From Candidatus Palauibacter soopunensis (GTDB lineage Bacteria; Gemmatimonadota; Gemmatimonadetes; Palauibacterales; Palauibacteraceae): a DNA stretch of 64,000 nt. Shown here piece after piece: positions 7,317-55,619 of the stretch. Position 1 is the stretch's first letter, and each line of letters starts with the position of its first letter. The translations under genes were made by a program, and so were the position numbers. The stretch is taken from positions 8,841 to 72,840 of the forward strand of contig NZ_CANPVT010000026.1 in assembly GCF_947581735.1 (NCBI RefSeq). The letters run 5' to 3'. The notes beneath the pieces are model-generated. The model ran no database searches. It saw only the letters and a program-made list of their open reading frames with translations, and was not told the DNA's origin.

Positions 7317-8537
7317 CTAGAACCCGGCCGCCACCTCTCCCAGAGCGGCTACCGCATCGTCGAGTTGCCGGTCGCTGAGATAGGGGGCCGGGCCCAGCCG
7401 CAGCAGGTCGTCGCGGTAGTCCGTCGCCACGCCCCGTGCCGCGAGGGCTTCGTGGAAGTCCCGTGCCCGCGGCGTGCGGAGCGCGAGGAAGCCGCCCACC
7501 GCCTCGGGCGGCGTCTCCCGGTCGCGGTCCAGGAGTTCAGGATCCGCGTCGAGCCCGTCGAACCCGCGCGTGAGACGGTCCATCTGATGCCGGCTCACCG
7601 CGCGCAGAAACTCCGGAGAGAGTCCCCGCTCCCGGAAGAAGTCGAACACTTCGGCGGCACGGTAGTGGCTCGTCGGATCGTATGTGCTGCCCGCGAACCG
7701 TTCCGCTCCCGGCCCGTACCTCACCCGCCCCGCGTCCTCCCCCCCGTGCAGCGTCGAAAACTCCGCGAACCACCCCGTGATGGCGGGGCGCAGCCGGCAG
7801 CCCGGCGGCACCCGCAGGAAGCAGTTCCCCTCGCCGAGCTGGCAGTACTTGTACCCGCCGCCCACCACGAACGCGCCTTCAAGTCCGAGGCTCGAGAGAT
7901 CGAAGGGGATCGCGTTCAGCGCGTGATAGGCGTCCACGAGGAGATGGGCCCCCACCCCTTCGCAGCGTTCCGCCACGCGGTCGAGCCCGCCGACGATGCG
8001 GGCGTCCCGGTAGAGGACGGCGGAGACCAGCACCCCCGCCGTCTCGTCGTCCGTCGCGAGGCCGAGCCGCTCGGACAGTGAGTCGATCGGGTCCACGGGC
8101 ACGCGAACGATGGACAGCCCCTCCTCCTCCAAGCGGTCGAGCTGGCGTCGGATGGAGTGAAACTCCCCGGCGGTCGTGACGAGGCGGGGCCGCGCGCGCA
8201 GGGGCAGGGCGGAGAGCAGGCGGACAACGAGTTCGTGCGTGTTCGAGCCCAGGGCGTAGTCCCCGTCGTCCGGACGTTCCGGGCGGCCGAGAAGTTCGGC
8301 GTACCCGGTGCGTACCCGGTTCCCGCGGGCGAACGCCTCCTCCCACTTCCCGTCCACCAGGCGGGCGGCGTCCTCCCAGGCCCGGAGCTGTCCCGCGAAT
8401 CCGCAGTCGGGCCACGCCTGGTGCGAATGGCCCGTGAGGAGCAGCCGCTCCGAGACCCGGAAGCGGGAGTAGTGTGGAGCGAGCGCGTTCGGCTCCCGGT
8501 ACAGGTCCTCCGGCGCGAAGCTAGTGTGGTGTCGCAT
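7317..8537 (-). CDS. kynU: Kynureninase (PLP-dependent)
   Basis: 406 aa, aminotransferase class V-like with kynureninase-type N-terminus (RFRV...LLTGHSHQAWPD). Lies immediately downstream of a tryptophan 2,3-dioxygenase gene. Confidence 0.8.
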   Translation of the reverse strand: MRHHTSFAPEDLYREPNALAPHYSRFRVSERLLLTGHSHQAWPDCGFAGQLRAWEDAARLVDGKWEEAFARGNRVRTGYAELLGRPERPDDGDYALGSNTHELVVRLLSALPLRARPRLVTTAGEFHSIRRQLDRLEEEGLSIVRVPVDPIDSLSERLGLATDDETAGVLVSAVLYRDARIVGGLDRVAERCEGVGAHLLVDAYHALNAIPFDLSSLGLEGAFVVGGGYKYCQLGEGNCFLRVPPGCRLRPAITGWFAEFSTLHGGEDAGRVRYGPGAERFAGSTYDPTSHYRAAEVFDFFRERGLSPEFLRAVSRHQMDRLTRGFDGLDADPELLDRDRETPPEAVGGFLALRTPRARDFHEALAARGVATDYRDDLLRLGPAPYLSDRQLDDAVAALGEVAAGF

Positions 8538-8546
8538 GAATCCTGG

Positions 8547-9350
8547 TCACAGGTCGGTGCGGATCGCCCACAGGTCGGGAAATACGGGGCGGTTCAGCGA
8601 CTTCCTCAGGTAGGCGGCGCCTCCGGTCTGGCCGGTCCCGGGCCGCGCCCCGATCGTGCGCTCCACCATCTTCACATGCCGGTAGCGCCACTCCTGAAGT
8701 CCCTCGTCGAGGTCCACGAATCGCTCGCACAACTGGACGAGCTGCGGATCCTCCCGGTACAGCCGGATGAGGGCGGCCCGCACGCCCGCGGATGGCTCGG
8801 TCGGCGCCGTGACGTCCCGCTCCAGGTCCTCCGCCGGGATCGCGTACCCGCGCGCGTGGAGAAAGCGAAGGAAGGCCGCCCACAGCGACGGCGCCTCGTA
8901 GCGGGATTCGAGCCGCCGGCGCGCGTCGCTTCCAGCCGGGTATCGGTCGAAGACGTCCCACCGCTTGTGGCCGAGAATGAATTCAAGCTCGCGGAACTGG
9001 TACGATTGCAGGCCGCTCGCCTCCTCCAGCCTCTGCCGGAAGGCGAGGAACTCCAGCGGACGCATCGTCTCGAGGATGTCCAGCTGGGCGACCTGGACCT
9101 TCAGGATCGTGAGGATGCGTTCCATCGTATGGAGGAGCCGCGGCATGTCGTCCGCACCCATCCGGTCGCACGCGAACTCGAGTTCGTGCAGAAGCTGCTT
9201 GAACCACAACTCGTATACCTGGTGGATGATGATGAACAGCATCTCATCGTGCTCGCGGCTCCCGTCCTCGCCCGATTGCTCCACCTGGAGCGACAGCAGC
9301 TCGTCAAGGTGCAGGTACCCCGAATAGGTCAGGTATTTTCCGTGCGCCAT
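8547..9350 (-). CDS. kynA: Tryptophan 2,3-dioxygenase
   Basis: MAHGKYLTYSGYLHLDELLSLQ... and IIIHQVYELWFKQ are the TDO signature region. ATG 9350 is preceded by GGAGGGA. The upstream in-frame ATG 9389 is less likely. Confidence 0.85.
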   Translation of the reverse strand: MAHGKYLTYSGYLHLDELLSLQVEQSGEDGSREHDEMLFIIIHQVYELWFKQLLHELEFACDRMGADDMPRLLHTMERILTILKVQVAQLDILETMRPLEFLAFRQRLEEASGLQSYQFRELEFILGHKRWDVFDRYPAGSDARRRLESRYEAPSLWAAFLRFLHARGYAIPAEDLERDVTAPTEPSAGVRAALIRLYREDPQLVQLCERFVDLDEGLQEWRYRHVKMVERTIGARPGTGQTGGAAYLRKSLNRPVFPDLWAIRTDL

Positions 9351-9402
9351 GAATCTCCCTCCGGCGGCCCGCCCTCGGGCTCGCGTCATCAGGCCCGCAT
9401 CC

Positions 9403-11705
9403 TCAGTACCCCCACTCGAATCTCGGCGTGTAGCCGTCCAGCGACGAATACTGCGGAGGCCAGGGGATCGGCGCCCCCGACGCGTAGGCGGCGTGCCGGG
9501 TCCAGTATGGGTCCCAGAGGTGTGCGCGGGCGAGACAGCAGAGGTCCGCGCGCCCCGCCGCGAGGATCGTGTTCACGTCCATGAACGAGGAGATGTTGCC
9601 CACGGCCATGGTCGCGATCCCCGCCTCGTGCCGGATGCGGTCCGAGAAGGGGGTCTGGTACTGGCGGCCGTAGACGGGCTCCTGCCAGGGGACGGTCTGC
9701 CCCGCCGAGACGTCGATGATGTCCACGCCCGCCTCGTTCAGGCGGTGCGCGACCTCGACGGCTCCGTCCGGCGTCATTCCGCCCTCGGCCCAGTCCACCG
9801 CGGAGATCCGGACGGAGATCGGCTTCTCCGGCGGCCACGCGGATCGCACCGCCGCCAGCACCTCGAGCGGGAAACGCAGCCGGCCGTCCACGTCGCCCCC
9901 GTATTCGTCCTCACGGACGTTGGTGAGAGGAGAGATGAAGCTGGCCAGCAGGTAGCCGTGCGCGAAGTGGATCTCCAGCAGGTCGAACCCGGCTTCCTCC
10001 GACATCTCCGCCGCGCGGCGGAACTCGGCCGTCACCCGATCCATGTCCTGCCGCGTCATTTCGCGCGGAACCGGGCTGTGCTCGAACCAGGGCACGGCGG
10101 AGGCCGCCATGATCGGCCAGCCGCCCTCTTCGAGCGGTTCGTTGTCGCCCTCCCACGACAAATGCGTGGAAGCCTTCCGGCCCGCGTGGCCGAGCTGCAT
10201 CCCGATCGCCGCGTCGGAATGGCGGTGCACGAAGTCGACGATCCGCTTCCAGGCGCCCACATGCGCGGGAGCGTACATCCCTGTGCAGCCCAGCGAGATG
10301 CGGCCCTCCCGGCTCACGTCCGTCATCTCCGACATCACGAGGCCGGCGCCGCCGATCGCGCGGCTGCCGAGGTTCACCAGGTGCCAGTCGTCCGGCGTCC
10401 CGTCCTCCGCCGAGTACTGGCACATGGCCGAGACGACGACCCGGTTCTTCAACTCGAGCTCCCGGAGCCGGAACGGGGCGAGGAGCGGGGGCGGCGCCGG
10501 GCCGCCCCGGATGGTCCCGGGGGGAGGTGCTCCGGCCCCGGCTGCCGCGTCCGCCGCGGCCCGCTCCGCGAACCAGCGGTCGACGCGCGCGGTGAACTCC
10601 GGATCGCGCAGGGCGAGGTTGGAATGGGTGATGCGAAGGCTGCGCGTGATGAGATTGAAGGCGAACTGCACGGGGTCCGTCTCCAGGAAGCGCTCGGTGC
10701 CCTCGAACCATTCGAGGCTCGCCTGGGCCGCCCTCTGCACGCTCTCGACCTCCGGCCTGCGGGCCGTCTCGTAGGCCTCCAGCGCGGGAGCCACCGCGAG
10801 ATCGTGGGCGAGAAGCGACTCGTGAAGCGAGATCGCGTCGATCATCGCAAGCCGGGTGCCCGACCCGATGGAGAAGTGGGCCGAGTGCGCGGCGTCGCCG
10901 ACGAGCACGATGTTGCCGTGGCGCCACGATCGGTTCCGGACGGTCGGGAAGCCCCGCCAGATCGAGCGATTCGCGATAAGTCGATGGGAGCCCAGTTCCT
11001 CGCGGAAGGTGTCCTCGAGGAAGGCGACGGTCTCCTCTTCGGAGGCGGCGTCCATGCCGGCGGCGCGCCACGTCGCCTCGGTCGCCTCGACGATGAAGGT
11101 GGAGACGGCTTCGTCCCCGGCGCCGCCGGGCCTGTACTGATACGCGTGTACCCGCCACAGACCGTGTTCGGTCTCCCGAAAATGGAACGTGAAGGCGGGG
11201 AACGGCTTCGTCGTGCCGAGCCACACGAACCGGTTGGGACGGAGATCGATGCGGGGGCCGAACGCGTCCGCGTATCGGTCCCGCATGCGGCTGTTCACTC
11301 CATCGGCGGCGAGCACGAGATCGGCGTCCGCGTACGCGTCCTCCGACTCGACGTCCACGCCGTACTTCAGATCGACGCCGAGTTCGCGCGCCCGCGACTC
11401 CAGGATCTCGAGGAGCGTGGTGCGCGCGAGGCCGCTGAACCCGTGTCCGGTCGACGTGAGCCGGTGGCCCCGGTAGTGGATGTCGATGTCGTCCCAGTGG
11501 TGGAAGGACCGCGTGATCGCGTCGTAACTCTCGCGGTCGGCGGCGGCCAGTTCCTCCAGCGTGGCGTCGGAGAACACGACGCCGAAGCCGTAGGTGTCGC
11601 CGGGATGGTTGCGCTCGAGGACGACGACGTCGTGCGCCGGGCCCGAGCGCTTCATCAGGATCGCGAAGTACAGGCCGGCCGGCCCGCCTCCGACGCAGAC
11701 GATCC
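9403..11705 (-). CDS. Fused FAD monooxygenase / Old-Yellow-Enzyme reductase: 2-aminobenzoyl-CoA monooxygenase/reductase-like (bifunctional salicylyl-CoA 5-hydroxylase type)
   Basis: N-terminal part has [12 protein letters not shown] (FAD Rossmann) and DG...D / GDAAH motifs of class A flavin monooxygenases. C-terminal part has OYE-like FMN TIM-barrel motifs (HGAHGYLL-like [17 protein letters not shown]). The start is uncertain: the frame is open to 12123 and overlaps the ACAD gene, and there is no ATG or GTG within about 100 nt after the ACAD stop (candidate CTG/ATC near 11700). Confidence 0.75.
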
Positions 11706-12866
11706 TCAGAGGTCGTCCTCGTCGCGCGCGGCGTCGAGCAGATGACGCGCGATGATGAGACGCTGAATCTCCGTTGCGCCCTCGTAGATGCGGAGGGCTC
11801 TCACGGAGCGGTAGAGCCGGTCGACCGGATGGTCCGCCAGCACGCCGCGTCCGCCGAGGATCTGCACGGCGTCGTCCACCACCCCCTGCGCGATTTCGGT
11901 CGCGAAGGACTTTGCCATGGCGGCTTCGAGGTCGGTGCGGTCCGCCCCGCCGTCGCGTTCCCAGGCGGCTCGATACACAAGAAGCCGGGCGGCGGTCAGG
12001 TCGGTGCCCATGCGTCCCACCTTCTCCTGCGTGATCTGGAAGTCGGCGAGCGCCCGTCCGAACTGTCGGCGCGAGAGGGCGTGGTGGAGCGCTTCGTGCA
12101 GCGCGCGCCCCGCCATCCCGCACGCCGCGGCTCCGACGGTGGGGCGCAGGCGGTCGAGCGTCGCGAGCCCGAGCTTGTACCCTTCGCCCTCGGCTCCGAC
12201 GCGGGCCGCGGCCGGCAGCCGACAGTCCTCGAGCGCGATCTCGCCCAGCGGGTGGGGGTCGGCCATCACAAGCGGCCGCACGAAGCGGAACCCCTTCGTG
12301 TCCGCCGGGAGGAGGAAGGCGGAGATCCCCGCCACGCCCTCGCCGGGGTCGGTGACCGCGAACAGGAGATAGAAATCCGCGATCCCGGCGTTCGAGATGA
12401 AGGTCTTCACGCCGTTGAGGATGTAATCGTTCCCGTCACGGACGGCGGCCGTGCGCATGGCGGCGACGTCGGACCCCGCCTCCGGCTCGCTCATCGCGAA
12501 AGCGGCCACGGCTCGCCCCCGGATGGCGCGGTCGAGCCACAGCCGCCGCTGCCGCTCGTCGCCGGCCAGTGCGATCGGGGTCGAGCCCAACGCCTGGAGC
12601 GCGAACATCGCGTCCGCGAGCGGCGAGTAGAAGGCCAGCGTCTCACGGATCACGGAACAAGCCCGGAAGTCCTGTCGGGCGATCGCCTTCAGCCAGCCGC
12701 CACGCCCGAGGGATGCGCAGATCTCCCGTGCATACCGGCGGGCGAGATCATCGTCGTCCCGATGCGCGTGTTCGGCGAACTCGGACGCCGCGTAGCGCTC
12801 GAGGCCCTCCCCGAGTTCGAGGTGCCGCGGTTCGAGAAAGGCGCGGACCGGATGGAGGTCGATCAC
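11706..12866 (-). CDS. Acyl-CoA dehydrogenase
   Basis: 387 aa from GTG 12866, which overlaps the ECH stop (GTGA). ACAD motifs present ([39 protein letters not shown]). The ORF-track start 13385 runs through the ECH gene, so I rejected it. Confidence 0.85.
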
Positions 12867-13663
12867 GAGAATACCGCCGCCCGCTTCTCGACGAAGGCCC
12901 GGAAGCCCTCGCGGAAGTTCGGGTCCTCCATGCAGGCGGCCTGCAGACGGGCCTCCTCGGCGAGCGCGTCGCGTAGCGTCATGTGCGCCTCCCTCTCCAG
13001 CGCGTGCTTGGTGACGGACAGCGCGGAGGATGGTCCCGCCGCCAGCCGCGCCGCCCACTCCGTTCCCGCGGCGAGCGCTTCGCCATCGGGCACGACCCGA
13101 TTGTACAGCCCGAGACGGAGCGCCTCCCGAGCGTCGAGAAAGTCGCCCGTCATCAAAAGCTCCGTCGCCCGCCCGAGACCGATGATTCGCGGCAGGAGCC
13201 AGGCGATGCCCATGTCGGCGCCGGAAAGCCCGACGCGGGTGAACAGGTAGGCGATCTTCGCGGATTCCGCCGCGATCCGCACATCGCACGCGGTTGCGAT
13301 CACGGCCCCGGCTCCCGCCACCGTCCCGTTCAGGGCGCCGACGACGGGTCGGCCGCACTCCCGCATGGCGGCGATCAGGTCGCACGTCATTCGTGTGAAG
13401 TCGAGCAGTTCCGCGGAGTCCATTTCGAGGAGCGGCCCGATGATGTCGCGCACATCTCCGCCCGTGCAGAAGGCGGTGCCGGCCCCCGTGATCACGACCG
13501 CGCGGACCCCCGGTTCCGCGTCGAGTGCGCGGAACGTGTTTCGGAGTTCGTCGTAGACCTCGAAGGTCAGGGCGTTACGCCGTTCGGGGCGGTTCAGCGT
13601 GATCGTCGCCACGGAGGTCGCGGCATCGACATCGTACAGGAATGAAGTCGGGGTCAGAGGCAC
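12863..13663 (-). CDS. Enoyl-CoA hydratase/isomerase (crotonase family)
   Basis: GTG at 13663 (VPLTPTSFLYDVD...) gives 266 aa. Crotonase oxyanion motifs AVVITGAGTAFCTGGD and ALNGTVAGAGA are present. The longer ORF-track start 13741 would overlap the RidA gene. Confidence 0.85.
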   Translation of the reverse strand: MPLTPTSFLYDVDAATSVATITLNRPERRNALTFEVYDELRNTFRALDAEPGVRAVVITGAGTAFCTGGDVRDIIGPLLEMDSAELLDFTRMTCDLIAAMRECGRPVVGALNGTVAGAGAVIATACDVRIAAESAKIAYLFTRVGLSGADMGIAWLLPRIIGLGRATELLMTGDFLDAREALRLGLYNRVVPDGEALAAGTEWAARLAAGPSSALSVTKHALEREAHMTLRDALAEEARLQAACMEDPNFREGFRAFVEKRAAVFS

Positions 13664-13694: not shown

Positions 13695-14102
13695 TCACGG
13701 CAGGACGGCGGTCGCCTCGATCTCGACCTGCGCGCCGGCATCGACGAGCGCGCTGACCTCGACGAGCGCCATGGCGGGGTAGTGCCGGCCGAGCCGGGCG
13801 CGCCACGTCGCCCCGAGTTCGGAACGCGCGTCGCGGTAGGTGGCGAGATCCGTCACGTAGATGGTCATCCGTCCGATATGCGCAGGCTCTCCGCCCGCCG
13901 CCCGGACGACCGCCAGCACGCGGTCGAGCGCGAGCGCGAACTGCGCGGCGAAGTCCGGCGTCTCAATGCGTCCGCTCGATCCGCTCGCCGTTTGCCCGGC
14001 GACGAACAGCACGCGCCCGCCGGGAGGAGCGAGGAGCCCATGATTCCAGCCCCGCGGCTCGCCCAGCGCGGCCGGATTCAGCACCTCGAACGGGTCGGTC
14101 AC
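13695..14102 (-). CDS. RidA/YjgF-family reactive-intermediate (enamine/imine) deaminase
   Basis: 135 aa. ATG overlaps the SDR stop (ATGA). YjgF-like motifs (RVLFVAGQ..., PARSAVEV-like ALVEV). Confidence 0.75.
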   Translation of the reverse strand: MTDPFEVLNPAALGEPRGWNHGLLAPPGGRVLFVAGQTASGSSGRIETPDFAAQFALALDRVLAVVRAAGGEPAHIGRMTIYVTDLATYRDARSELGATWRARLGRHYPAMALVEVSALVDAGAQVEIEATAVLP

Positions 14103-14881
14103 TGGAGAGCCGACGTGGCGCCGCCGTCCAGCACGACGGTCTGGCCGTTGATGCTCAGCGCTTCGTCTTCACACAGGAACGCGATGGTTGCCGCGACCTC
14201 CCCGGGGGCGATGAGCCTCCGCTGCGGCGTCGTCGCAAGAATCGCGTCGAGCGCGTCCGTCTCTTCCATGTCCGTTCGCTTCACGATGTTCTCGATCGTT
14301 GCATCCGTCATCGGGGTGTCGACGTAGCCGGGACAGACCGCGTTCACCGTGACCCCGGCTCCGGCCACTTCGGCGGCGGCGGAGCGCGTGAGTCCGAGAA
14401 GGGCGTGCTTCGACGCGGCGTAGGCGGCGATGTAGCGTGCTCCGCGCAGCGCGGCGACCGAGGCCACGTTCACGATCCGGCCCCAGCCGCGTTCCATCAT
14501 GCCGGGAAGCACGCCCTGCATCGCGAGCAACGCACCGGTCGCGTTGATGCGCCACAGCCGGTCCCACTCCTCCAGGGCGAGTTTCACGATGGCGGCCGAA
14601 CTGGCCACGCCGGCATTGTTGACGAGGATGTCCACGGCTCCGAGCCGGTTCGCGGCCTCGCGGCACAGGTCCTCCACCTTCGCCGGGTCCGACACGTCGC
14701 ACGTCGCCGCCCACGCCTCGCCGCCACGGTCCCGAAGCTCGGCCGCGACCGCCCCGATCTCCGCCGTGCTCCGCGCCGCGAGGACCAGTCGGACGCCTCG
14801 GTCCGCCAGCGTCCGTGCCGTCGCGGCTCCGATGCCGCGCCCTCCGCCCGTGATGAGAGCGCCACGTCCGGCGAGACTCAT
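14099..14881 (-). CDS. SDR-family oxidoreductase (3-hydroxyacyl-CoA / 3-oxoacyl reductase-like)
   Basis: TGGGRGIGAA Rossmann motif, NNAG, and catalytic YAASK. ATG overlaps the creatininase-family stop (ATGA). Confidence 0.85.
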   Translation of the reverse strand: MSLAGRGALITGGGRGIGAATARTLADRGVRLVLAARSTAEIGAVAAELRDRGGEAWAATCDVSDPAKVEDLCREAANRLGAVDILVNNAGVASSAAIVKLALEEWDRLWRINATGALLAMQGVLPGMMERGWGRIVNVASVAALRGARYIAAYAASKHALLGLTRSAAAEVAGAGVTVNAVCPGYVDTPMTDATIENIVKRTDMEETDALDAILATTPQRRLIAPGEVAATIAFLCEDEALSINGQTVVLDGGATSALQ

Positions 14882-15642
14882 GCTTTCTCCTCCCTCAGGG
14901 CTTCTCCCACCGCTTCCGCGAGGATGTCTCCGAGCGTCTCAATGGTAGCACGTCCCTCTTCCGCCGTCGCCTGCGACGGGTAGCCGAAATAGGCCCGCGT
15001 CCCCCCCGCTTCCGCGAAGTCTCCCAGTCCGGCCCCAATCGCCGCGGAGAGGGAGACGGGATTGTCCTCCAGCTCGCGCATGATCTCCTCCCGCACGCGC
15101 CCGGGGCTGCGGGCGAGGAGGATCGAGCCCTCGTACTGCCCGGCATGACAGGCCCCGCTCCGGAACTCCTTCGTCAGCCGGTTTCCCCACGGCCGGCGCG
15201 TCACATCCGGAAACACGACGCGAATGGCGTCGCCCTCGGCGATCGCCGCGGCGGCGGCCCGGAGCGCCTCGAGGTTGGCGGGGTCGAAGTGCGCGTTCGC
15301 GATCGCCAGGGTGACGATCCCGGCCCGTCGCAGGCTGGCGGCGATGTCGACGAGCAGAGCGGTGAGCGTCGCGGGGCCGATGTCGATCGTGCCGGGAAAC
15401 CTCGCGGCGAACGCGGCGGGCGTGTAGCGGAGGCCGTCGAGGAGCACGATCTGCAGACCGCGAGCCGAGAGTCGTCGCGCGCCGGCTTCCGCCATCGCTT
15501 CGGCGATGGTGACATCGGTGTCGAGAGGCAGGTGGGGGCCGTGCGCTTCGGTGGCTCCCACGGGCAGGATGGCGACCGTCCGATCGGAGTCGAGCGCCCC
15601 GACCTCTTCCCAGGTGAGGTCCGAAAGCCTGTACAGAGTCAT
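14878..15642 (-). CDS. Creatininase-family amidohydrolase
   Basis: ILPVGATEAHGPHLPLDTD is the creatininase/ArfB-family metal-binding signature. 254 aa. First gene of the minus-strand operon. Confidence 0.75.
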   Translation of the reverse strand: MTLYRLSDLTWEEVGALDSDRTVAILPVGATEAHGPHLPLDTDVTIAEAMAEAGARRLSARGLQIVLLDGLRYTPAAFAARFPGTIDIGPATLTALLVDIAASLRRAGIVTLAIANAHFDPANLEALRAAAAAIAEGDAIRVVFPDVTRRPWGNRLTKEFRSGACHAGQYEGSILLARSPGRVREEIMRELEDNPVSLSAAIGAGLGDFAEAGGTRAYFGYPSQATAEEGRATIETLGDILAEAVGEALREEKA

Positions 15643-15772
15643 GGAGTCTCGCTACGCCGTGCCAGAGAGGGGCGCAAGTCCGGGCGGGCCGCGTCGGTTG
15701 TAGACGCGCCGGGCCGCGCATACCACACTAGACCCGAGCCAGACGCCGGACGACCCCCGCCGACGGAGCCCG

Positions 15773-17371
15773 ATGCGAGACCCCGCGCCGCAGCAGATCT
15801 TCGATCCGCCCGAGCGCTTCAACATCGCCGATTACTTCCTGGGCGACCGCATCCGGGAGGGGCGGGGCGGCCGCCGCGCGCTCCTCACCGACGACGGCGA
15901 GACGACCTATGCCGAGGTCGACGCGCTCGCGAACCGCTACGGCCACCTCCTGCGCCGCGCCGGCGTGCGACCGGAGGAGCGGGTCCTCATCGCGCTCCCG
16001 GACGGACCGGACTTCGTCGGCGCGCTCTTCGGCACGCTGCGGATCGGCGCCGTGGGCGTCATGCTGAACCCGTATCTTCGGCGCGACGAGATCTCGTACT
16101 TCTTTCGTTACACGCGCGGCGCCATCCTTCTCGTGGACTCCGGGCGCGCGGACGCCTTCCGCGAAGCCGGGTCCGCGACGGATGACGGAGGGGCGATCCG
16201 CTGGGGCGAAGGGATCTCCGCCCCGCGCGAAACGTTCGTTGTGGACCGGCCGCGGTTCAGGGAGCGTCTGGACGGCCAACCGGCGACGCTGGATCCGTAC
16301 CCCACTCACCGGCACGATCCCGCCCTCTGGCTGTTCAGCGGCGGGACGACCGGTCGCCCGAAAGGCGTCGTGCAGACGCACGCTTCGTTCGCCAACACGA
16401 CGGAGTGCTACGGCAAGCGGATACTGGGTCTGACGGAGGACGACATCACGCTTTCCGTCCCGAAACTGTTCTTCGGCTACGCCACCGGATCCAACCTCTT
16501 CTTCCCCTTCTCGGTCGGGGCGACCGCGGCCCTCTTCCCGGAGCGCTGCAGTCCGGACGTCCTGTTCGGGAAGATCGCGCGATTCCGCCCCACCGTACTC
16601 GTCAACGTGCCCACCATGATCCGGCTCATGGTGGCGCACCCGGACGCGGCCGCGAGCGATCTCTCATGCCTTCGTCTCGCGACCTCGGCGGGCGAGGCGC
16701 TGCCGCCCGAACTTCACCGGCGCTGGCGGGACGCGTGGGGCGTACCGCTCCTGGACGGGCTGGGGACGGCGGAAATGTGGCACATCTTTCTCAGCAACCG
16801 TCCGGACGAGGTGCATCCGGGCACGCTGGGGCGCGCGGTGCCGGGTTTCGAGGTGCGGGTCTGCGACGACGAGGGGCGAGAACTTCCGGACGGCGAAGTG
16901 GGTTGGCTCCGGGTCCGCGGCGGATCGCGGGCGCTGGGGTACTGGCAGCGGGCGCGGGCGACGGCGGAGGCCTTCCGGGGCGAGTGGTACGTGTCGGGCG
17001 ACATGGTCGTCCGCGACGAACGGGGGGTCTTCCGCTACTGCGGGCGCGGCGACGACATGCTCAAGGTGAAGGGAAAGTGGCTGTCGCCCGGCGAGGTGGA
17101 GGACTGCCTGCTGCGGCACGAGGCCGTGGCGGAGGCGGCCGTGGTCGGCGTCCCGACCCCCGAGGGTCTCGTGGAGCCGGTCGCCTGGGTCGTCCCGACG
17201 AAACCGGCCGCCGGAAGAGCCGGCGAGCTTCCACCGGAACTCAGGGAATTCGTCGGTGCGCGGCTGTCCTCGTACAAGACGCCCGCCGCCGTTCACGTAG
17301 TGGCGGATCTGCCCAGGACACACCTCGGAAAGGTCGATCGCGCCGCACTCCGCGATCGATCCCGGAGCTGA
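15773..17371 (+). CDS. Benzoate/anthranilate-CoA ligase family (AMP-forming)
   Basis: AMP-binding motif LFSGGTTGRPKGV, then YGTAE-like GTAEM and the LGKVDR terminal lysine motif. Divergent from the catabolic operon. Confidence 0.85.
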   Translation: MRDPAPQQIFDPPERFNIADYFLGDRIREGRGGRRALLTDDGETTYAEVDALANRYGHLLRRAGVRPEERVLIALPDGPDFVGALFGTLRIGAVGVMLNPYLRRDEISYFFRYTRGAILLVDSGRADAFREAGSATDDGGAIRWGEGISAPRETFVVDRPRFRERLDGQPATLDPYPTHRHDPALWLFSGGTTGRPKGVVQTHASFANTTECYGKRILGLTEDDITLSVPKLFFGYATGSNLFFPFSVGATAALFPERCSPDVLFGKIARFRPTVLVNVPTMIRLMVAHPDAAASDLSCLRLATSAGEALPPELHRRWRDAWGVPLLDGLGTAEMWHIFLSNRPDEVHPGTLGRAVPGFEVRVCDDEGRELPDGEVGWLRVRGGSRALGYWQRARATAEAFRGEWYVSGDMVVRDERGVFRYCGRGDDMLKVKGKWLSPGEVEDCLLRHEAVAEAAVVGVPTPEGLVEPVAWVVPTKPAAGRAGELPPELREFVGARLSSYKTPAAVHVVADLPRTHLGKVDRAALRDRSRS

Positions 17372-17384
17372 CCCCCGCGGCGTT

Positions 17385-18629
17385 CTAGTCGCCGTCGAGA
17401 TGTGCCATGACGAGTCCGCTCCGGATCTTGGGCTCGAACCAGGTCGACTTGGGAGGCATCATCCGGCGCTGCCGGCAGACCGCGACAAACTGGTCCATCG
17501 TCACGGCGGGTAGCGTGACGGCCAGATCGGCTCGACCCCCGTCCACTTCGGCCGCGAGCCACGCCGCGTCCTTGTTGGCGCCGACGAAAGTGAGCCGCTC
17601 GTCGGCCGCATCGGGGATGCCCAGATCCGCGAAGAGCGTCCGCTGCACGATATCGTGGTCGATGGAGGCCGCGGCGTCCGCCTCGTCGTAGACGCCGGCC
17701 CGCGGCGAGGCGCGCCGCCAACCCCCGTCCGCCGTGTACACGCCGATCACATGTGTCTCTTCCGGCTGCAGGGGCCCGTCTCCGGCAAGCGCTACGTCGA
17801 ACGAACGCGCCAGCGCCGACTCCACCGGCGCGACGCGGTCGCCGGGAAGCCGGGCCAGCCGATTGTAGGGGGAGATCCCCATCCGGTCGGCCGGAAAGAA
17901 CACCGCGAGAAAGGACTCGTGTCCCAGCATGGCCGCGGCGGCGCTCCGGTGGTTCCCGTCGGCCACGTACGCCTCCGGCTGGTCCGCAAGAAGGCGCTGC
18001 AGACGCGTCACCGCGCCCGGCTCGGCGACGAGCCAGATGTGATGCGTCGTCCCCAGGCGCCCCTCGACCTCGAAATCGGCCGCCGTTCCGTCCGCATGAC
18101 GCTCGAGCGCCGCCGCGAACGCCCCGGACTCGTCCGGGACCGCATTGTTCACGGTCCCGATGATGGCGCCCGTCGCCTCGATGAGCCGGGCGCGTCCCCT
18201 CGCCTTGGGCGGGCGAACCCCTTCGTTCCGGATGATTGGCCCGGCCGGCGTGTCTTCCGTCCGGATCTCGTCCGTGCGGGCCAATCCGCCGAGGCCGATC
18301 TGGCGCACGCCGGGGCGCCGCGGATCCACGATCTCATAGATGTACAGGGTCCTCTTCACCTCGTGCGTAAGCGGGGAGGCGCGCAGGCGCTCGAAGTTGC
18401 GGCGCGCCCGCGCGAGCGACTCCTCCGAGTCTCCCCTCAGGATCCGGTCCGGGCTCGTCACGGCGCAGTGCGCCATGGTGACGTTCAGCACCGAATCAGG
18501 TGCGTCCCGGATGGCTTCCCAGATCTCGTGGTCCCCCTGAAACTCATCGTAGTTGAGCGCGGAGACGCGGCGCGCGGCCGCGGAATCGACGGGCACGAGC
18601 GCGCGGCGGATGGGGCGTATCGTGAGCAT
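17385..18629 (-). CDS. DUF1015-family protein
   Basis: About 415 aa conserved hypothetical. Start placed at MLTIRPI (the ORF-track start 18692 adds 21 aa). Family assignment is from memory of DUF1015 sequence character. Confidence 0.4.
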   Translation of the reverse strand: MLTIRPIRRALVPVDSAAARRVSALNYDEFQGDHEIWEAIRDAPDSVLNVTMAHCAVTSPDRILRGDSEESLARARRNFERLRASPLTHEVKRTLYIYEIVDPRRPGVRQIGLGGLARTDEIRTEDTPAGPIIRNEGVRPPKARGRARLIEATGAIIGTVNNAVPDESGAFAAALERHADGTAADFEVEGRLGTTHHIWLVAEPGAVTRLQRLLADQPEAYVADGNHRSAAAAMLGHESFLAVFFPADRMGISPYNRLARLPGDRVAPVESALARSFDVALAGDGPLQPEETHVIGVYTADGGWRRASPRAGVYDEADAAASIDHDIVQRTLFADLGIPDAADERLTFVGANKDAAWLAAEVDGGRADLAVTLPAVTMDQFVAVCRQRRMMPPKSTWFEPKIRSGLVMAHLDGD

Positions 18630-18874
18630 TTCGCAACGAACCGGGTTCGAGTATCGAGTCGGGCGCGGTTGACCTCGCCAAGACCCTGTCAACCGGAGAC
18701 ATCCCGCGCAACGCCCCCTGGTGAAGGGAGCCTCCCGGCGCCTGATGCGCGGACGGCGGGTTGCCCGCGCGAGGCCGGAGCGTTTCTTATTCAGAGGAGT
18801 GTCGCGTCCCCCCGGCCGGCTCGGCCGTGCCCGGGGGGTGTGGCATGCCGGTCGAAACGAGTGCTGGAGGCTTC

Positions 18875-55546: not shown

Positions 55547-55619
55547 GGGGCCGTAGCTCAGTTGGGAGAGCGCCTGCTTTGCAAGCAGGAGGTCGTCGGT
55601 TCGAATCCGATCGGCTCCA
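55547..55619 (+). tRNA. tRNA-Ala (anticodon TGC)
   Basis: GGGGCCGTAGCTCAGTTGGGAGAGCGCCTGCTTTGCAAGCAGGAGGTCGTCGGTTCGAATCCGATCGGCTCCA. Acceptor stem has the G3:U70 Ala identity pair. Anticodon loop CTTTGCAAG. CCA is not encoded. Confidence 0.9.

Follow-up and report, generated by a model that had tools for sequence, protein, structure and literature searches.

A creatininase-superfamily metallohydrolase in a tryptophan-to-anthraniloyl-CoA operon of Candidatus Palauibacter soopunensis is a candidate aryl-formamide hydrolase

Which enzyme removes the formyl group in an operon that carries genes for tryptophan 2,3-dioxygenase (TDO) and kynureninase and no recognisable kynurenine formamidase? This question is raised by a 64,000-nucleotide stretch of Candidatus Palauibacter soopunensis (Gemmatimonadota; RefSeq contig NZ_CANPVT010000026.1, positions 8,841 to 72,840), hereafter the window, in which a sequence-only reading had assigned the minus-strand gene at 14878-15642 to the creatininase family and proposed that its product supplies the missing deformylation of N-formylkynurenine. 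Our analysis places this product, hereafter the hydrolase, in a small subfamily that is a dedicated accessory of a gene set for tryptophan catabolism through anthranilate and 2-aminobenzoyl-CoA in Gemmatimonadota and Acidobacteriota. The reading we prefer, at a probability of roughly 45%, is that it acts as an aryl-formamide hydrolase on N-formylkynurenine and/or N-formylanthranilate.

To characterize the hydrolase, we compared it with profile, sequence and structure databases. The family assignment was confirmed, with the coordinates and the quoted peptide exact: the protein matches Pfam Creatininase PF02633 at 178 bits (cut-off 31.3; E 2.6e-52, which excludes chance), its residues 8-245 lie on profile positions 2-238 of 238, and LPVGATEAHGPHLPLDTD forms residues 26-43. 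In a phmmer alignment to Pseudomonas putida creatininase (1J2T/1Q3K), E32/H34/D43/H118/D120/H166/E171 of the hydrolase correspond to E34/H36/D45/H120/E122/H178/E183. These positions comprise the ligands of the binuclear metal centre (Glu, His, Asp, His, Glu) and the catalytic His/Glu, with E122 to D120 as the one swap, and in the hydrolase subfamily they are invariant across 19 homologues with identity down to 43%. The alignment of these 19 homologues also yields the signature blocks GA[TVI]EAHGPH, NAHFDP and EFxSGACHAG; the region of the substrate-pocket residue Trp174 of creatininase reads SGAC in the subfamily, with the Cys before the catalytic His almost invariant. An AF2 model built from 42 homologues reached a pLDDT of 96.6, and a Foldseek search of this model against PDB gave 26 matches at E <= 0.001, all of them creatininase or putative creatinine amidohydrolase chains (TM 0.68-0.76, ~24% identity). 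The P. putida creatininase entries themselves (PDB 1J2T/1V7Z/3A6x) share the fold at TM 0.72-0.76 and E ~1e-14, with metal and catalytic residues aligning one to one; they differ from the hydrolase in sequence (~24% identity), in the two active-site replacements just described, and in a genomic context that in the window is unrelated to creatinine. Alignment and model together indicate an intact binuclear-metal hydrolase that is not a creatininase in the strict sense.

Matches to the characterised subfamilies in NCBIfam all fall below their cut-offs: 110.5 bits against 172 for MftE (TIGR03964), 81.1 bits against 235 for the creatininase equivalog (TIGR04448), and 31.9 bits against 245 for IolN (NF041098), the last covering the N-terminal third only. 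Searched exhaustively, 1.84 billion cluster representatives yielded 6,740 creatininase-family members, and since only 129 of the 6,740 match the hydrolase at E <= 1e-30, the subfamily is small. Its members are currently annotated generically, as 'creatininase family protein' or 'creatinine amidohydrolase', and the creatininase label is almost certainly wrong for their physiological role. Tandem double Creatininase domains occur in more distant relatives (P0419, 533 aa; P0488 and 25 cluster members, 525 aa, Thermomicrobiales).

The hydrolase gene opens a minus-strand operon of eight genes whose junctions overlap or nearly abut, in the order hydrolase, short-chain dehydrogenase/reductase (SDR), RidA, crotonase-family enoyl-CoA hydratase/hydrolase (ECH), acyl-CoA dehydrogenase (ACAD), 2-aminobenzoyl-CoA monooxygenase/reductase, TDO and kynureninase (coordinates and profile matches in Table 1). 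Overlaps of 4 nt join the hydrolase stop to the SDR start, SDR to RidA, and ECH to ACAD, and the remaining gaps measure 9-13 nt. The earlier placement of the hydrolase as first gene, and the presence of TDO and kynureninase in the operon, as its last two genes, are therefore both upheld. Between the hydrolase and the TDO/kynureninase pair stand five genes of the 2-aminobenzoyl-CoA pathway, which the sequence-only reading had not mentioned, nor had it mentioned the aryl-CoA ligase gene that diverges from the operon. The locus as a whole encodes a route from tryptophan through N-formylkynurenine to anthranilate, anthraniloyl-CoA, a dearomatised CoA ester and beta-oxidation-like steps. Its kynureninase is a divergent one: the protein has no NCBIfam kynureninase match and a weak one to Pfam KYNU_C, and its best PDB match is Pseudomonas fluorescens kynureninase 1QZ9, aligned over residues 18-402, full length, at ~25% identity. 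Streptomyces goshikiensis, Nonomuraea and Vibrio aquimaris encode enzymes of this type (46-60% identity), and homologues on Streptomyces plasmids that are annotated as kynureninase are 59% identical to the 7317-8537 product.

No KynB motif (HxGTHxDxPxH) turned up when the window was scanned in all six frames. Likewise, tblastn with a KynB probe validated on TIGR03035 (347 bits) and with three HSL-type alpha/beta hydrolases from analogous clusters gave no match in the window, nor in any of 115 related loci. The claim that no recognisable kynurenine formamidase is present thus stood, for the window and these loci, and the creatininase-family protein is the sole amide hydrolase that the operon encodes.

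We next anchored a comparative analysis on the hydrolase, in 35 genome loci and 80 metagenome loci. The arrangement of the window, with the ligase diverging from hydrolase-SDR-RidA-ECH-ACAD-reductase-TDO-kynureninase, is widespread in Gemmatimonadota. The ligase adjoins the hydrolase in 57 of the 66 loci with enough upstream sequence, TDO occurs with it in 37 of 47 evaluable loci, and its linkage to anthraniloyl-CoA genes is kept in more than 100 loci of two phyla; it is this conservation that identifies the subfamily as a dedicated accessory of the catabolic gene set. One orphan copy lies in an unrelated context (L025). In Acidobacteriota (L126, L128-L132, L138) the monooxygenase/reductase is split into an old-yellow-enzyme (OYE)-like gene and a FAD-monooxygenase gene, sometimes with unrelated genes between them. 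L127 and L136 have an extra OYE-like gene on top of a fused monooxygenase/reductase gene, and L136 also carries an SDR-RidA fusion (390 aa).

Characterised members of the creatininase superfamily are mostly C-N amide hydrolases, creatininase acting on a lactam and MftE on a peptide bond, and IolN is a member that opens a cyclic diketone. The expectation that the family includes true formamide hydrolases is borne out by the archaeal ArfB (MJ0116) and by BrbF of Sinorhizobium meliloti (SMc02977), the latter previously annotated as creatininase, both of which are proven to cleave the formamide bond in an N-formylated aromatic amine (PMC9478397). These two precedents make aryl-formamide hydrolysis the best reading of the hydrolase. 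On the encoded route from tryptophan to acetyl-CoA the only amide bond is that of the formamide, carried by N-formylkynurenine, or by N-formylanthranilate if kynureninase acts first. KEGG lists both orders, with deformylation before or after kynureninase, and N-formylanthranilate is widely reported as a tryptophan metabolite. We infer the substrate and its place relative to kynureninase as follows. TDO would open the indole ring of tryptophan, and a metal-activated water of the hydrolase would attack the formyl carbonyl of N-formylkynurenine; alternatively, the divergent kynureninase may act first, and the substrate would then be N-formylanthranilate. Either order would release formate and a free arylamine. 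The divergently encoded ligase would convert anthranilate to its CoA ester, which the monooxygenase/reductase would dearomatise.

Two groups of known enzymes help to place this proposal. ArfB and BrbF are likened to the hydrolase by chemistry and not by sequence: they catalyse metal-dependent deformylation of an N-formylated aromatic (pyrimidine) amine, the chemistry proposed here, but they serve riboflavin biosynthesis with a nucleotide substrate, and no riboflavin genes lie near the hydrolase gene (PMC9478397). KynB (TIGR03035, cyclase family) and the AFMID/Bna7-like HSL type would share its reaction and pathway position if it is an aryl-formamidase, yet neither they nor the alpha/beta-hydrolase formamidases in general are homologous to it. 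HSL-type hydrolases of the tryptophan/anthraniloyl-CoA clusters of Thalassospira and Haladaptatus fill an accessory slot analogous to that of the hydrolase. A literature search returned no paper linking creatininase-family proteins to kynurenine, anthranilate, TDO or Palauibacter.

Several genomic contexts tie the hydrolase to the entry of the pathway and favour an aryl-formamidase. In three alphaproteobacterial metagenome-assembled genomes, the ligase and the hydrolase form a two-gene operon amid housekeeping genes, with TDO not nearby. Locus L041 combines a TDO and ligase pair with a divergent hydrolase followed by a 4HBT thioesterase gene, and contains no lower-pathway genes. In L132 and L133 (Multivoradales) a stand-alone hydrolase gene diverges from a TDO-kynureninase operon, and unrelated genes separate it from the SDR operon. 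Finally, in P0467, a 658-aa singleton from an organism of different composition, a hydrolase homologue is fused in frame to a kynureninase; the kynureninase part is 57% identical to that of the window, and the hydrolase part, 33% identical, retains EFKSGACHAGRYETS. The absence of the hydrolase from proteobacterial clusters for the lower pathway, described below, favours the same function. As to gene replacement, a role as stand-in for the proteobacterial 4HBT thioesterase is rejected because L041, L127 and L132 have both, and a role as stand-in for a FadB-like gene because L136 has both.

Table 1. Features of the hydrolase operon and the divergent ligase gene, in window coordinates.
Feature	Position	Strand	Basis and remarks
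Creatininase-superfamily metallohydrolase, operon gene 1	14878..15642	-	ATG start, 254 aa; PF02633 E 2.6e-52
Short-chain dehydrogenase/reductase (SDR)	14099..14881	-	PF00106 E 5e-61
RidA-family, putative enamine/imine deaminase	13695..14102	-	PF01042 E 1.5e-17
Crotonase-family enoyl-CoA hydratase/hydrolase (ECH)	12863..13663	-	NF006107 357 bits (cut-off 330); probable GTG start 13663
Acyl-CoA dehydrogenase (ACAD)	11706..12866	-	Pfam Acyl-CoA_dh_1/M/N; GTG start 12866 overlaps ECH stop
Fused FAD monooxygenase/OYE reductase, 2-aminobenzoyl-CoA monooxygenase/reductase (salicylyl-CoA 5-hydroxylase) family	9403..11709	-	NF006101 1103 bits (cut-off 1078)
Tryptophan 2,3-dioxygenase (TDO)	8547..9389	-	PF03301 E 2.1e-61; TIGR03036 271 bits, below cut-off
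Divergent kynureninase-like PLP enzyme, last operon gene	7317..8537	-	KYNU_C E 1.2e-7; PDB 1QZ9 E 5.5e-10
Benzoate-CoA-ligase-family aryl-CoA ligase, presumed anthranilate-CoA ligase, divergent from hydrolase	15773..17371	+	TIGR02262 462 bits (cut-off 375)
Divergent intergenic region between hydrolase operon and ligase, 130 bp, presumably with promoters and regulatory sites	15643..15772	.	Flanking coordinates

A second body of evidence weighs against deformylation. The hydrolase is not specifically close to any of the characterised subfamilies it matches in NCBIfam (MftE, creatininase, IolN). A lower-pathway gene adjoins it in 79 of the 87 loci with enough sequence, and SDR, RidA, ECH and ACAD are its most conserved neighbours. 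At least nine Thermoanaerobaculia-type loci (L026, L027, L126-L131, L138) have the order hydrolase-SDR-RidA-ECH-ACAD-(split) reductase, with no TDO, kynureninase or ligase in their flanks (10 kb in most), and the hydrolase loci L043 and L110 are also without TDO. In a neighbour-joining tree of the hydrolase these TDO-less contexts are scattered, so that the hydrolase and the lower module appear as a stable unit to which TDO/kynureninase and ligase adjacency comes and goes. Gene fusions join the hydrolase to SDR in two distinct sequences (P0358 and P0505, 515 aa) and to RidA in a singleton (P0357, 422 aa); together with P0467, the fusion links point both up the pathway, to kynureninase, and down it, to SDR and RidA. 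From the other side, TDO-kynureninase pairs exist where the hydrolase does not. A TDO-anchored search recovered two loci with the full cluster and one, L134, with TDO-kynureninase and neither the hydrolase nor lower genes, where an Abhydrolase_3 gene ~2 kb away is the only candidate hydrolase. Streptomyces goshikiensis has a ligase gene divergent from TDO-kynureninase (with the kynureninase type of the window), and Vibrio aquimaris has a bare TDO-kynureninase pair, both without the hydrolase or an adjacent formamidase, which weakens the argument from a hole in the pathway. The co-occurrence with kynA/kynU that the first proposal put forward as a check is accordingly partial: TDO accompanies the hydrolase in most evaluable loci, but each partner is also found without the other. 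As for the proposal itself, that the hydrolase is the missing N-formylkynurenine formamidase, the chemistry, the intact active site and the lack of another amide hydrolase speak for it; its neighbours belong mostly to the lower pathway, and the proposal is thus supported in part.

The strongest competing explanation, which we consider somewhat unlikely, follows from the stability of this neighbourhood, the operons of Thermoanaerobaculia type and the fusions to SDR and RidA, all of which favour a lower-pathway role. It takes the hydrolase as a creatininase-fold metallohydrolase acting on a CoA-ester intermediate after 2-aminobenzoyl-CoA monooxygenase/reductase, where it could hydrolytically deaminate the vinylogous amide 2-amino-5-oxocyclohex-1-ene-1-carbonyl-CoA or open the ring of the resulting diketone by C-C hydrolysis, in the manner of IolN. 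The steps after the monooxygenase/reductase have been described as biochemically unresolved (PMC3534580; PMC4539516), which leaves room for such an enzyme. IolN shows that the creatininase fold is capable of ring C-C hydrolysis, although the match of the hydrolase to the IolN profile is far below cut-off. The direct overlap of the hydrolase and SDR genes and the occurrence of the upper module (ligase, TDO, kynureninase) in Streptomyces with no hydrolase add to this side. On the other hand, no amide bond is expected at these steps, RidA and the crotonase are already candidates for deamination and ring hydrolysis, and the ligase-hydrolase operons, L041, L132/L133 and the kynureninase fusion are not predicted of a mid-pathway enzyme.

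Another point against a lower-pathway function comes from other phyla, where clusters with orthologous reductase, SDR, ECH, ACAD and RidA (38-54% identical to the proteins of the window) never contain the hydrolase. We found the monooxygenase/reductase on 227 plasmids and megaplasmids at a coverage of >=80%, and no hydrolase homologue above 36% identity on any of 72,556 plasmids, these 227 included. Nor was the hydrolase found in any proteobacterial, actinobacterial or haloarchaeal 2-aminobenzoyl-CoA cluster inspected, so it is not universal to the pathway. Clusters of the Azoarcus evansii (abm) type, in Ralstonia, Paracoccus, Phyllobacterium, Sagittula and Thalassospira, resemble the window in their orthologous reductase, SDR, ECH, ACAD and RidA, and differ from it in having no creatininase-family gene, in the presence of MarR and, in most, of a 4HBT thioesterase, and in a ligase of a different type that is 32-35% identical. 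In Ralstonia, Phyllobacterium, Paracoccus and a Gemmatirosa plasmid the order is reductase-SDR-(MarR)-ECH-ACAD-ligase-(thioesterase)-RidA, and TDO, kynureninase and the hydrolase are all absent from these clusters. The window monooxygenase/reductase shares 52-54% identity with its homologues in Proteobacteria and Actinobacteria, the SDR is 40-45% identical to that of proteobacterial clusters, and a RidA gene is present in every 2-aminobenzoyl-CoA cluster examined. In these phyla the lower pathway thus runs without the hydrolase.

What some of these clusters have instead is a hydrolase of another fold. An HSL-type alpha/beta hydrolase occupies the accessory slot in Thalassospira, where kynA/kynU lie inside the cluster, in Haladaptatus, where kynU, the alpha/beta hydrolase and IDO adjoin it, and in Paracoccus, where kynA/kynU are missing. 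An accessory hydrolase therefore recurs beside 2-aminobenzoyl-CoA clusters in unrelated folds. The HSL-family hydrolases of Paracoccus versutus pTAV3 (L121) and Thalassospira marina (L117) are 35% identical, in clusters without and with kynA/kynU. Sagittula again counts against an aryl-formamidase, since its cluster contains kynA/kynU and no hydrolase of any kind, which means that an in-operon formamidase is not required.

The Paracoccus case also bears on a further explanation, a quite improbable one in our judgement, in which the hydrolase would work as an aryl-acylamidase or lactamase on a different precursor of anthranilate, such as N-acetyl- or other N-acyl-anthranilates, anthranilamide or an isatin-type lactam. 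Its role would match that of Amq and AqdA, the alpha/beta-hydrolase amidases beside anthranilate-CoA genes in Actinobacteria; Amq is called an alpha/beta-hydrolase-fold N-acetylanthranilate amidase in a title cited in PMC10948491. The hydrolase does follow the anthranilate-consuming genes rather than TDO, as in the ligase-hydrolase pairs with no TDO nearby, and the HSL-type hydrolase of Paracoccus accompanies an anthranilate-CoA cluster despite the lack of kynA/kynU. The conservation of MFS transporter genes beside the Thermoanaerobaculia clusters suggests that the substrate is imported. Set against this, TDO and kynureninase share the operon with the hydrolase in the window and in the 37 evaluable loci counted above, which makes the formamide the obvious amide, and genes that would produce N-acylanthranilates (quinolone/quinaldine cleavage) are absent from the window and the related loci. 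The explanation overlaps strongly with aryl-formamide hydrolysis in any case, because known arylformamidases are promiscuous.

The last alternative makes the hydrolase an ordinary creatininase, MftE peptidase or riboflavin-pathway deformylase that neighbours the operon by chance. It can point to MftE and creatininase as the best NCBIfam matches, but the synteny kept in more than 100 loci of two phyla effectively refutes it, and the subfamily has invariant motifs of its own. A true creatininase or MftE is likewise rejected on scores far under the cut-offs and on a context with no mycofactocin, creatine or riboflavin genes nearby, just as the absence of inositol and mycofactocin genes separates the hydrolase from its superfamily relatives IolN (3-dehydro-scyllo-inosose hydrolase) and MftE (mycofactocin peptidase).

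Further observations concern the operon and its surroundings. A promoter and terminator scan of the operon yielded nothing of use, and no sigma-70 consensus match in the 130-bp intergenic region, a consensus that is not informative for this phylum. None of the codons ATG, GTG and TTG is present where the reductase gene should start (window 11701-11712, minus strand); the apparent start there is a CTG that overlaps the ACAD stop. The resulting CTGA is conserved in the window and in 13 Palauibacter-type genomes (L001-L013), and more distant relatives have ATGA, GTGA or TTGA; the pattern points to initiation at CTG or to obligatory translational coupling of the reductase gene. Convergent with the ligase gene lies a DUF1015 gene (17385-18692, minus strand), which holds the same position in 20 related loci (L001-L016, L018-L020, L036; 63-98% identity) and is missing from more distant clusters. 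Elsewhere in the window, the segment 52000-56000 has a G+C content of 0.57-0.60, compared with ~0.69 in the rest, and contains the only tRNA of the window (tRNA-Ala TGC, 55547-55619); searches for rRNA and other Rfam families came up empty.

The ligase/TDO/kynureninase module of S. goshikiensis (L139, plasmid NZ_CP140776.1, 6479-10179) sits inside an enediyne cluster with a chromoprotein gene and the tyrosine aminomutase gene cmdF. Its ligase, TDO and kynureninase are 48%, 47% and 59% identical to those of the window, and the module looks like a supply route for an anthraniloyl-CoA-type building block.

For the sponge symbiont Palauibacter, the operon amounts to a complete catabolic route from tryptophan to a CoA ester. 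Should the hydrolase act in the lower pathway, it would be the first enzyme to be identified for the long-unresolved steps that follow 2-aminobenzoyl-CoA monooxygenase/reductase, and the aerobic anthraniloyl-CoA pathway of Acidobacteriota and Gemmatimonadota would differ in chemistry from the proteobacterial version. If it is an aryl-formamidase, as we prefer to read it, it would be the third formamide hydrolase in the creatininase superfamily. Step two of the kynurenine pathway, served elsewhere by KynB or by enzymes of the alpha/beta-hydrolase type, would then have a third, non-homologous solution, and a gap in the annotation of two phyla abundant in soil and sponges, Gemmatimonadota and Acidobacteriota, would be closed.

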